Source: a virus. Taken from it: a stretch of DNA of 12,455 nt. Where the stretch lies: the UHGV virus genome UHGV-1619099; one strand, 5' to 3'. The notes below the pieces were generated by a model that did not search any database, was not told where the DNA came from, and saw only the letters and a list, made by a program, of their open reading frames with translations. This document shows, piece after piece, positions 2,376-8,273 of the stretch (the stretch's first letter is position 1; every line of letters starts with the position of its first letter). The position numbers and the translations under genes were made by a program.

Positions 2376-2573
2376 ATGGCACAGAGATACGATTTAAAAG
2401 AAGACTGGGTTACTGGGTGTATTGACTTAGAGAAAGACGCAGACGGTGACTGGGTTGGCCACAGAGACTATGCGAAACTTGAAGCAAAGTTACGTGAATT
2501 CGCCGAACAGGTAATTAACGAACCTTGTTCGAAAGTTACAGAAGAAATGGCCCGCGAGATTCTCGGAATATGA
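2376..2573 (+). CDS. hypothetical protein (65 aa)
   Basis: ATG 2376 with aggagaag SD 5 nt upstream; ORF track starts at GTG 2370. Confidence 0.55.
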   Translation: MAQRYDLKEDWVTGCIDLEKDADGDWVGHRDYAKLEAKLREFAEQVINEPCSKVTEEMAREILGI

Positions 2574-2863
2574 GCCTTGCAACTGACATCCTGAAACGAA
2601 GCGGCCTTGCGCCGCTTTCACCGAGAGCGAACACCAGAATACACAAGCGACGCCGTAACGCGCTGCACCCGGAGATTCAAGCCAGACGCAAAGCAGTCCG
2701 CGCCTGCGGATTCCAGAACGGGAAGGCCGTGAATCTCGGTGAGTTTAAAACAAAGGAACGTGCAGCAATCGCTAATCGGTTATTTAATTACTGGAAATCG
2801 CTGGGGTACGATGATATTCCGACGAAACCGCAGAGACGACAATACATCTGGAGACACAAATAA
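2570..2863 (+). CDS. small basic protein with AP2-like DNA-binding signature (97 aa)
   Basis: ATG 2570 overlaps upstream stop (ATGA); segment AVNLGEFKTKERAAIANRLFNYW resembles the AP2 domain found at the C-terminus of phage HNH endonucleases (from memory); no HNH motif present. Confidence 0.5.
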   Translation: MSLATDILKRSGLAPLSPRANTRIHKRRRNALHPEIQARRKAVRACGFQNGKAVNLGEFKTKERAAIANRLFNYWKSLGYDDIPTKPQRRQYIWRHK

Positions 2864-2893
2864 ACAACTATTAGGATAATTCCTACCCGTGGT

Positions 2894-2933
2894 ATCCTCC
2901 AGTTACTGCATACTTAATACGCACCTGGAGGAT
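2894..2933 (+). promoter_or_regulatory. stem-loop sequestering the holin Shine-Dalgarno sequence
   Basis: atcctccag (2894-2902) is the exact reverse complement of ctggaggat (2925-2933); the right arm contains the SD ggagga (2927-2932), 6 nt upstream of the TTG start at 2939. Confidence 0.45.
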
Positions 2934-2938
2934 TCATC

Positions 2939-3247
2939 TTGGATAAATTTACTGAAACAGTGACGGGGTGGCTTCTCGCCGCCGCACTGGTCGGTGGATT
3001 GGTCGGACTAAGACAACATAAAAAGTCTATATCCGGGCCGATTGACGGACTGGTATTTCTTCTAACCGGCTTTGCGTGTGCCATTTTCGGTGCGCCTCTT
3101 GCCGCTCAATGGTTCGGTATTACCGGTGAGCGCGAGATAGCTGGCCTCGGATTCATCATTGCCATTCTCTGGATGCCTATCTATTCCCGCCTTTCTGGCA
3201 TCGTATCGGGTGGCGATATTTCCCGCCCGGGAGGACCTCATGACTGA
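2939..3247 (+). CDS. holin (three predicted TM segments, class I-like), TTG start
   Basis: 102 aa with three hydrophobic stretches (WLLAAALVGGLVGL; LVFLLTGFACAIFGAPLAAQWF; IAGLGFIIAILWMPIY); immediately upstream of the endolysin. Confidence 0.65.
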   Translation: MDKFTETVTGWLLAAALVGGLVGLRQHKKSISGPIDGLVFLLTGFACAIFGAPLAAQWFGITGEREIAGLGFIIAILWMPIYSRLSGIVSGGDISRPGGPHD

Positions 3248-3512
3248 GCTATTCTGGTTTGTCGTAATGCTGGCAATGGGCGCTTCGTCCCTGTTCAACG
3301 TGTATAATGAGCACGTGGACGACGGGTTATTCGGGCGTGTGCTCTATATCCTGACTGCGATTGTCTGCGCCGCCGGATGTATCCACCTGTTACAGGGCAG
3401 CGTGTCACCAACGTTGCCTGAGACGTTAATCACATTAGTCGCGCTGCGTCAGATTCGTCAGGCGTGGCTGTCGTACGGAGGACATAAGCGTGTCTCGAAA
3501 CATTTCAGATAA
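3240..3512 (+). CDS. small membrane protein with two TM segments (second holin/antiholin-like)
   Basis: ATG 3240 overlaps the holin stop; hydrophobic stretches LFWFVVMLAMGASSLF and VLYILTAIVCAAGCIHLL; sits between holin and endolysin. Confidence 0.5.
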   Translation: MTELFWFVVMLAMGASSLFNVYNEHVDDGLFGRVLYILTAIVCAAGCIHLLQGSVSPTLPETLITLVALRQIRQAWLSYGGHKRVSKHFR

Positions 3513-4141: not shown

Positions 4142-4170
4142 TTGACACCTAAGACTAATCCGACGATACT
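4142..4170 (+). promoter_or_regulatory. sigma70-like promoter candidate (TTGACA, 17 bp, GATACT)
   Basis: Perfect -35 ttgaca at 4142-4147, 17-bp spacer, -10 gatact at 4165-4170. Confidence 0.35.
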
Positions 4171-4263: not shown

Positions 4264-4292
4264 TTGACTATTACCCTCGACCCTATTATATT
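4264..4292 (+). promoter_or_regulatory. sigma70-like promoter (TTGACT, 17 bp, TATATT) for the downstream small-gene cluster
   Basis: -35 ttgact 4264-4269, 17-bp spacer, -10 tatatt 4287-4292; first gene starts at 4327. Confidence 0.5.
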
Positions 4293-7026: not shown

Positions 7027-8273
7027 GTATTCAGCTATCGGCCCCTCAGGCACTGTTCCTGAATTGTGACAATAAATACAAGGCATACGTCGGCGGCTTC
7101 GGTAGTGGCAAGACATTTGTTGGCTGCCTTGACCTGCTTACGTTTATGCTCAAGCACCCTGGTACGCGCCTTGGCTACTTCGGCCCGACCTACCCGGCTA
7201 TCCGTGACATCTTCTACCCGACATTCGAGGAAGCGGCTAACCTGCTCGGCCTTGATGTGCTGGTTAAATCCGGCGACAAAGAAGTCGTGGTTACTCGCGG
7301 TAAGACGGTGCTAGGAACGGTTATCTGCCGTTCGATGGATAACCCTGGCTCTATCGTAGGTTTCAAAATCGCTGCTGCGGTCGTGGATGAGCTGGATGTA
7401 CTGAGCCGCGAGAAAGCCGAGCTGGCGTGGAACAAAATAGTAGCCCGTATGCGTCTGGTTATCCCCGGTGTAATTAACCACATCTCTGTCACCACGACGC
7501 CGGAAGGGTTCAAGTTCGTCTATGCCAAGTTCAAAGAGAATCCAACACCGAGTTACTCGATGGTGCAGGCTTCCACACACGAGAATGCGCGATTCCTGCC
7601 ACCGGATTACATCAGTTCGCTGACCGAGACTTACCCGGCGCAACTGATTAACGCGTATCTGAACGGTGAGTTCGTCAACCTGACATCCGGCAGCGTGTAT
7701 TACGCCTATGACCGTCGCAAGCACCGCAGTAAAGAGACAATTCAGCCGGGCGATACACTGTACATCGGGCAGGACTTCAACGTTACAAAGAACGCCAGCG
7801 CTGTGTATGTGCAACGTAAAGACGGCTGGCACGCGGTGGCGGAACTGAAGGGCCTGTTTGACACGCCGGACACCGTGCGTGTTATTACTGAGAAGTGGAA
7901 GTCGCAAGGCCACCGCATCGTCGTTTACCCGGACGCCAGCGGCAAGAACCGCAAAACCAACTCGGCGTCAATCTCCGATATCGCGTTACTACAGCAGGCA
8001 GGGTTTGATGTTCGCGCTAAATCCGCCAACCCCCCTGTTAAAGACCGTGTTTTAGCGGTGAATACCGCGCTGGAAAAAGGTAAGCTGTGGGTTAACGACC
8101 ACTTATGCCCTGAGATAGCGAAGACGCTGGAGCAGCAGGCATACGACGATAACGGGGAGCCAGCTAAAGATGGCGTCATTGACCATATGGCGGATGCTCT
8201 CGGCTATCCTGTAGTTTACGAGATGCCGGTGGTTAAACCCGTAATCAACATCCCGGTGACTTTCGCACTTTAA
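7023..8273 (+). CDS. terL: terminase large subunit
   Basis: 416 aa; N-terminal Walker A P-loop VGGFGSGKT; sits between terS-like gene and portal. Confidence 0.8.
   Translation: MSIQLSAPQALFLNCDNKYKAYVGGFGSGKTFVGCLDLLTFMLKHPGTRLGYFGPTYPAIRDIFYPTFEEAANLLGLDVLVKSGDKEVVVTRGKTVLGTVICRSMDNPGSIVGFKIAAAVVDELDVLSREKAELAWNKIVARMRLVIPGVINHISVTTTPEGFKFVYAKFKENPTPSYSMVQASTHENARFLPPDYISSLTETYPAQLINAYLNGEFVNLTSGSVYYAYDRRKHRSKETIQPGDTLYIGQDFNVTKNASAVYVQRKDGWHAVAELKGLFDTPDTVRVITEKWKSQGHRIVVYPDASGKNRKTNSASISDIALLQQAGFDVRAKSANPPVKDRVLAVNTALEKGKLWVNDHLCPEIAKTLEQQAYDDNGEPAKDGVIDHMADALGYPVVYEMPVVKPVINIPVTFAL

Follow-up and report, generated by a model that had tools for sequence, protein, structure and literature searches.

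The first gene of the lysis cassette in a 12.4-kb stretch of phage DNA (the whole of which we call the window) starts beneath a hairpin: its Shine-Dalgarno sequence (SD) lies within a perfect 9-bp stem that is invariant within the genus, is an outlier in its genome, recurs with different sequences in other lineages, keeps a constant geometry relative to a promoter-like hexamer and has terminator-like versions in relatives. The invariance in Kagunavirus, the loop variants that lengthen the stem and the different self-complementary stems of other lineages strongly support that the structure is selected and not accidental. We infer that the hexamer is used as a promoter, that RNA from upstream reads into the cassette and that folding represses translation. 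The reading we put forward, to which we give about an even chance, is that the hairpin acts as a lock on the ribosome-binding site (RBS) that depends on where the transcript starts, i.e., the logic of T4 gene e combined with a host-type promoter.

The window derives from a virulent siphophage of E. coli in the genus Kagunavirus (Guernseyvirinae), and across 2780-3300 it is closest to Kagunavirus NRG857CP3 (99.4% identity), with ~120 other records at 77-97%. The cassette has the order holin/holin/endolysin, with the TTG-initiated gene (2939-3247) at its head (Table 1). The product of this gene matches the phrog_2359 profile over residues 1-97 (E = 4.6e-32) and has no match in Pfam. The same 309-nt coding sequence is annotated as 'holin' or 'antiholin/holin' in K1G, Sciku and Schulenburg, and three transmembrane domains were predicted by the relatives' annotators (TMHMM notes); by these annotations, either this gene or the next (3240-3512) may be the holin or the antiholin. 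A run of small genes on the + strand precedes the cassette, and the terminator scan called no terminator-like site on this strand within 1077-2938; since none separates the gene at 2570-2863 from the holin gene, that gene would be a source of read-through transcripts. Further upstream, the only terminator-like site before the cassette, a perfect 9-bp hairpin with a T-run (1055-1076), is followed by a promoter-like site (1202-1229), a pair that probably marks the start of an operon reaching the lysis cassette. Downstream of the endolysin gene there are two more promoter-like sites, both strong (10/12 matches; 4142-4170 and 4264-4292), ahead of small genes and the terminase. Within the cassette, the RBS region of the second holin-like gene (ATG at 3240; 3222-3247) has a predicted opening energy of 16.4 kcal/mol, higher than that of the first gene, which together with the overlap of the two genes suggests that their translation may be coupled.

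Table 1 Features at the head of the lysis cassette, in window coordinates.
Feature	Coordinates	Strand	Remarks
Upstream small gene, phrog_9632	2570..2863	+	Unknown function; same strand as the holin gene
Conserved upstream motif TTAGGATAATTCC	2871..2883	+	Contains weak -35-like TTAGGA and GGATAATTCC (2874-2883)
Extended -10-like element TGgTATCCT	2890..2898	+	Hexamer TATCCT, 4/6; overlaps left arm by 5 nt
Left (5') arm ATCCTCCAG	2894..2902	+	Contains anti-SD-like CCTCC; 0/9 positions variable
Loop, 22 nt	2903..2924	+	8/22 positions variable
Right (3') arm CTGGAGGAT	2925..2933	+	Contains SD GGAGGA (2927-2932); 0/9 positions variable
First lysis gene, holin family phrog_2359	2939..3247	+	102 aa, TTG start; ORF, profile match, relatives' annotation
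Second holin-like gene, phrog_2508	3240..3512	+	ATG overlaps stop of first gene (ATGACTGA); profile match
Endolysin, Phage_lysozyme PF00959	3490..3975	+	GTG start; domain match

The holin gene had been assigned a TTG start in the first-pass annotation, and the comparison with homologues supports this codon as the real start: the N-terminal M-D-K aligns with homologues initiated at ATG or GTG, the family profile matches from residue 1 of the TTG-initiated product, and the 309-nt coding sequence of the relatives agrees. The codon is the first start-type codon in its ORF, which opens with TTG-GAT-AAA-TTT-ACT-GAA-ACA-GTG (M-D-K-F-T-E-T-V); TTG starts are used by 3 of the 73 genes of Sciku. No second in-frame start lies near codon 1, the next start-type codon being the GTG at codon 8, which has no SD. 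A dual-start holin of the lambda S type was rejected, since there is no second start one or two codons from codon 1.

The two arms of the hairpin (2894-2902 and 2925-2933) are exact reverse complements and thus form a perfect 9-bp stem, after which a spacer (ttcatc, 2933-2938) leads to the TTG at 2939-2941, with GGAGGA ending 6 nt before it. On all of these points (the coordinates of stem and 22-nt loop, the SD within the right arm and its distance to the start, and the anti-SD-like CCUCC of the left arm) direct reading bore out the first-pass annotation. Its proposed stem is also present in both the minimum free energy (MFE) and centroid structures predicted for the RNA from 2880 to 2960 (-19.6 kcal/mol, z = -2.67), while the core (2890-2941) folds with -15.9 kcal/mol (z = -3.5). 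The probability that the SD is unpaired was 0.00 in all modelled RNAs that carry the left arm (starts at 2789, 2864 and 2887), and 0.17-0.44 for RNAs starting at 2903-2907, varying with the length of coding sequence included. Removal of the 5' arm lowered the RBS opening energy in the window modestly, from 13.6 to 9.9 kcal/mol. In the nested-promoter model the SD would be largely free in RNA without the left arm, and the predicted short RNA shows it only partly freed. A second, G-U-rich helix is predicted (2935-2970), in which the TTG start region CAUCUUGG pairs with codons 9-11 (ACGGGGUG); these partner codons vary among relatives (ACAGGCTG). An Rfam scan of 2600-3300 with E up to 10 returned nothing at the element, its two matches being chance hits to snoRNAs.

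Is such a hairpin more than chance would supply? Two perfect stems of at least 9 bp with loops of 3-30 nt occur in the window, at 2894-2933 and at the terminator-like 1055-1076, and dinucleotide shuffles of the window contain 1.3 such hairpins on average, so that the mere existence of a 9-bp stem in 12 kb is not significant and could by itself be taken for an inverted repeat without function. Its placement over the SD, its invariance across relatives and its first rank in Sciku are beyond chance. Sciku is a Kagunavirus with careful start annotation, and its holin gene has the longest perfect SD-covering stem among 73 genes (9 bp, the next being 7 and 6), with an RBS opening energy of 15.3 kcal/mol against a mean of 7.7 (sd 3.5; rank 3/73). 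A rougher control within the window itself, based on heuristic gene starts, was less extreme (13.6 against a mean of 9.3 kcal/mol, sd 4.3).

The first-pass annotation had named conservation in related phages as a check on its stem, and across 37 distinct Kagunavirus sequences the arms (0/18 positions variable) as well as the spacer and TTG (0/8) proved invariant, i.e., 0/26 in total, whereas 86 of 101 third-codon positions vary in the same sequences (pairwise diversity 0.36). Arms that never change can show no covariation inside the genus, and two loop variants (L012 and L015) add pairs that lengthen the stem. The element is unchanged whether its upstream neighbour is a small ORF or an inserted gene for an HslV-like protease. 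A functionless repeat is hardly credible against this invariance within a highly variable coding background, the stem-extending variants and the recurrence in other lineages described below, and the third-position diversity contradicts very recent common descent as the cause of the invariance.

Two further features of the genus concern the neighbourhood of the element. In many Kagunaviruses the HslV-like protease gene lies directly upstream of it (e.g., Sciku, 1580-2017), and the last ~16 nt of that gene (ACAACTATTAGGATAA, including the stop) are present also in protease-less genomes, such as the window at 2864-2879, which places an indel boundary just upstream of 2864. In vB-Eco-KMB36 and vB_EcoS_fTaEco03 the holin match is split in two, spanning ~360 and 600 nt, which suggests an insertion or duplication within or beside the holin gene.

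Outside the genus, holins of the phrog_2359 family in about nine other lineages are preceded by stems of different sequence with the layout kept, in the order -10-like hexamer, 5' arm, loop, 3' arm with SD and start codon. This layout is present in Jerseyvirus A and B, phiEap-2, Smarc3/Otaku, Dhillonvirus, KW1E/KLB22, Scapp/Smarc4 and eiAU, each with a predicted hairpin (z from -1.3 to -6.9), and without the 5' arm the RBS is predicted to open more easily in every lineage; in Jerseyvirus A, for instance, the opening energy drops from 17.5 to 5.8 kcal/mol. It is absent from Ounavirinae (Wc4-1, Arno162), Nafs113, RF1, Amjad_SA and MED16, which have the same holin family. Jerseyvirus A and B are clearly homologous to each other and differ in their inner pairs by compensatory changes (A-T A-T vs T-A A-T T-A), and within the KW1E group the stems are likewise compensated (TCCCCGG/TCGGGGA, ATCCCCC/GGGGGAT, GCCCCGGTA/TATCGGGGT and ATCCCCAAA/TTTGGGGAT). 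The right arms of the two Jerseyvirus types were wrongly aligned by MAFFT, and the KW1E stems slip register; therefore anchored pair counts and folds of each sequence were used. An inverted repeat could also be a DNA operator that flanks the promoter start and serves a dimeric regulator of phage or host origin, and the repeat does surround the putative transcription start (+1) and adjoin the conserved motif GGATAATTCC. However, the arm sequences and their spacing (6-22 nt) differ widely across lineages while the 3' arm is always the SD, which points to RNA pairing rather than to a conserved protein contact and makes an operator very improbable.

In four lineages (Jerseyvirus A, Dhillonvirus, KW1E and eiAU) the hairpin at the homologous position, with a T-run that extends into the start codon, scores as an intrinsic terminator, and cassettes so arranged would need either initiation inside the hairpin or read-through. 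One could accordingly see the element as a matter of transcription or RNA fate, namely as a degenerate terminator serving as a pause site, weak attenuator or processing/stability element, with the SD overlap a by-product of packing. In the window, however, an intrinsic terminator was rejected (22-nt loop, a tail TCATCTTG without a U-tract, and no call by the scan), and a 9-bp stem is too short for RNase III. Moreover, five lineages, the window included, have no U-tract after the stem and yet keep a hairpin whose 3' arm is the SD, from which it follows that the conserved property is the hairpin over the RBS and not termination. We consider this reading unlikely.

The layout was also examined in newly fetched sequences: a profile search returned family members 72-85% identical to the known lineages, whose contigs gave 13 distinct upstream regions, and all 13 have a hairpin over the RBS region and a TAnnnT hexamer on or beside the 5' arm, with the predicted +1 at or beyond the arm end. 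Scans of viral contigs added one locus with the KW1E holin as query and none with the Wc4-1 holin, a metagenome scan returned the Kagunavirus and Dhillonvirus types only, and a single-sequence protein search found close relatives only.

The Jerseyvirus Salmonella phage VT223 has, at 1985-2240, an element nearly identical to that of Kagunavirus, in which CG replaces TG before the hexamer and the outermost pair is broken. It precedes a 49-aa ORF whose opening resembles the Kagunavirus holin but whose remainder does not; directly behind come the hairpin of the Jerseyvirus type and the phage's own holin, and the arrangement looks like a recombination scar between two lysis-cassette heads. In Edwardsiella phage eiAU (283-337), ATG-GAC-TTA-TGG at 283, directly after the hairpin and T-run, gives the M-D-x-W N-terminus of the family, and the annotated holin start thus appears to lie 54 nt too far downstream. 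In a metagenomic Smarc3-like relative (L130, protein P0036; 360-400) the polarity is swapped, with GGAG in the 5' arm beside TATACT and CTCC in the 3' arm just before the ATG; positions -14 to -1 are still sequestered and no clear SD is visible there.

A conserved -10-like sequence, TGgTATCCT, which the first-pass annotation had overlooked, overlaps the left arm of the hairpin. The weak TTAGGA (2871-2876; 3/6 matches to a -35) lies 16 nt before the hexamer, and if +1 is taken as the seventh base after the hexamer, transcription is predicted to start near A2905, inside the loop. Among the 37 Kagunavirus sequences one of the nine positions of the element varies, namely the base between TG and the hexamer, which is g or c. 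All 11 lineage representatives have a TAnnnT hexamer on or immediately next to the 5' arm, with the arm ending between -3 and +2 of the predicted +1, so that RNA from such a promoter would lack the 5' arm; a TAnnnT near the 5' arm is found in 1 of 10 ordinary Sciku terminators. This geometric rule was found post hoc and then checked on the newly fetched sequences. The hexamers themselves differ by lineage: the window has TGgTATCCT, Jerseyvirus TGtTAATCT, phiEap-2 and Smarc3 TATACT, Dhillonvirus TGaTATAGT, KW1E TTGACC-17-TACTAT (with the hexamer ending one base before the stem), Smarc4 TTACCA-17-TAATCT (TTACCC in Scapp) and eiAU TGtTACCAT, a TG thus preceding the hexamer in Kagunavirus, Jerseyvirus A and B, Dhillonvirus and eiAU.

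On paper the promoter of the window is weak (3/6 plus 4/6, with the TG in addition) and is omitted by a simple -35/-10 scan, the TAATCT of Jerseyvirus and Scapp matches at 3/6 positions, and the hexamer of the window shares five of its six bases with the arm, which confounds its conservation with that of pairing. Two alignments speak for a role of the hexamer in a promoter, beyond its place in the RNA. The five KW1E-like sequences all keep TTTGACC and TAnnAT, and differ in their stems and in the spacer of 17-18 nt. In a MAFFT alignment of ten Guernseyvirinae lineages, TATCCT of the window aligns with TATACT, TACACT and TACCCT, the T, A, C and T being invariant, and the upstream motif TTGCAGATTAATCCTAA of the other Guernseyvirinae corresponds to ATTAGGATAATTCCTAC in the window at the same 7-nt distance from the hexamer.

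The motif at 2874-2883 has counterparts elsewhere: GGATAATTCC(TA) corresponds to GATTAATCCTAA in phiEap-2, Smarc3 and related phages, at equal distance from the -10-like hexamer, and the Jerseyvirus counterpart is GGATAAATCC, further upstream. The motif may be a regulator binding site that overlaps the -35 and spacer. GGATAAWTCC has four matches in the window (at most one mismatch) against 1.1 expected, the copy at 2874 being the only exact one; the motif does not recur in the window beyond chance and was dropped as a repeated genome-wide promoter signal. In Sciku (8166-8196), the terminator behind the major capsid gene has a perfect TATAAT 3 nt ahead of its 5' arm, possibly a further case of a promoter set on a terminator, here in front of the gene for the decoration protein. 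For Kagunavirus, Jerseyvirus and Dhillonvirus, the genome papers that we found give predictions only of where lysis-gene transcripts start; the one RNA-seq study of a Kagunavirus, a coarse time course with K1B4 that leaves 5' ends unmapped, puts the lysozyme gene in the 'middle' class (PMC12645636).

The principal competitor of the conditional lock is a constitutive throttle, whereby all lysis mRNAs start upstream of 2894 and carry both arms, the hairpin and the TTG permanently lower initiation on the first lysis gene and thereby tune lysis timing, and a hairpin near the 5' end could stabilise the mRNA as well. It draws on the predicted stable stem, within which the SD is wholly paired whenever an RNA carries both arms, on the rarity of TTG in this type of genome (3/73 in Sciku, as above), on relatives that keep the stem with or without a U-tract, and on the sole nearby promoter-like site listed by the scan, GAGACA-18-GATAAT (2851-2880), which would start RNA ~7 nt before the stem. 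Yet this promoter was rejected as the conserved one: its GAGACA -35 is replaced in protease-carrying Kagunaviruses in which the element is unchanged, and its GATAAT belongs to a motif that is not -10-like in other Guernseyvirinae. A throttle also leaves unexplained why every lineage has a TAnnnT next to the 5' arm, in many cases together with TG or a good -35, and where the hairpin is a terminator, transcripts with both arms would mostly stop before the gene. We hold it to be a serious alternative, though less likely than the conditional lock. The first-pass annotation had likewise suggested that holin synthesis is deliberately throttled or regulated: deliberate regulation agrees with a structure that appears to be selected, whereas throttling of all holin synthesis would not follow if the -10-like sequence at 2890-2898 is used, since only read-through would then be gated.

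The conditional lock would work as follows. RNA from the upstream small-gene operon would carry both arms, fold and bury GGAGGA, and the lysis genes would not be translated from this read-through RNA; in several relatives the hairpin with its U-tract would terminate it as well. A host sigma-70-type promoter, with its -10 (TGgTATCCT) overlapping the left arm, would start the cassette mRNA in the loop at ~2905, the loop thus being both the site of transcription start and the 5' end of the leader of the lysis mRNA. The cassette's own mRNA would have no left arm, a lock would be impossible and the SD would be largely free, and the weak TTG would then set a modest rate of translation.

More tentatively, and with somewhat less confidence than an even chance, we suggest that such a promoter-inside-a-hairpin switch is widespread at the head of the lysis cassette of enterobacterial siphophages that share phrog_2359, i.e., in Kagunavirus, Jerseyvirus, other Guernseyvirinae, Dhillonvirus, Scappvirus, Eiauvirus and KW1E-like phages, with the -10 and discriminator serving as the 5' arm and early read-through RNA being terminated and/or translationally locked. 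As part of the same suggestion, the adjacent motif GGATAATTCCTA / GATTAATCCTAA could bind a phage regulator that times the promoter and hence lysis. A full-text literature search returned no description of such an element for these phages.

Lysis timing sets the burst size and fitness of a phage, and there are many proposals to use members of Kagunavirus and Jerseyvirus in therapy and biocontrol. The puzzle is how virulent siphophages without an RNA polymerase of their own silence lysis genes that lie directly downstream of early genes on the same strand. If the conditional lock is correct, a compact cis element of ~50 nt would explain this silencing, the principle of T4 gene e would extend further than has been supposed and would include host-type promoters, and the element would offer a simple handle for engineering lysis timing. 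Annotation habits would also be corrected, with terminators being called atop holin starts and at least one holin start, that of eiAU, apparently misplaced.

Among known systems, the stem-loop sdi at the 5' end of the lambda holin gene S controls translation initiation and thereby lysis timing (PMC3359269). The window resembles it in having a 5' stem-loop on a holin gene that overlaps the SD, but sdi sets the ratio of two close starts (Met1-Lys2-Met3, antiholin vs holin), whereas the gene in the window has no dual-start motif. A second point of comparison is the Rho-independent terminator overlapped by a promoter, which the hairpins of Jerseyvirus A, Dhillonvirus, KW1E-like phages and eiAU resemble, scoring as terminators with their T-run and having a putative -10 that abuts the 5' arm.

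The closest parallel is T4, in which an inhibitory helix covers the RBS of gene e (lysozyme), soc, 49 and I-TevI in long early transcripts, and translatable RNA comes from late promoters on the DNA of the 5' strand of that helix (PMC3014915). In T4 gene e, as is predicted for the window, transcripts initiated upstream hide the SD or start of a lysis gene within a hairpin, and the shared purpose would be to prevent premature lysis from read-through RNA. The differences are threefold: T4 uses its own late promoters (TATAAATA, with the sigma factor gp55) whereas the element in the window resembles a host sigma-70 extended -10; the gated gene belongs to a holin family in the window and encodes the endolysin in T4 e; and the hairpin doubles as an intrinsic terminator in several relatives of the window. 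By analogy, the element would work like that of T4 gene e but is no member of the T4 late-promoter system, since no TATAAATA is present in 2864-2938. The principle is known; its recurrence in many genera of siphophages, a host-type promoter with its -10 and discriminator region as the 5' arm, and, in some lineages, a hairpin that doubles as a terminator appear to be undescribed.
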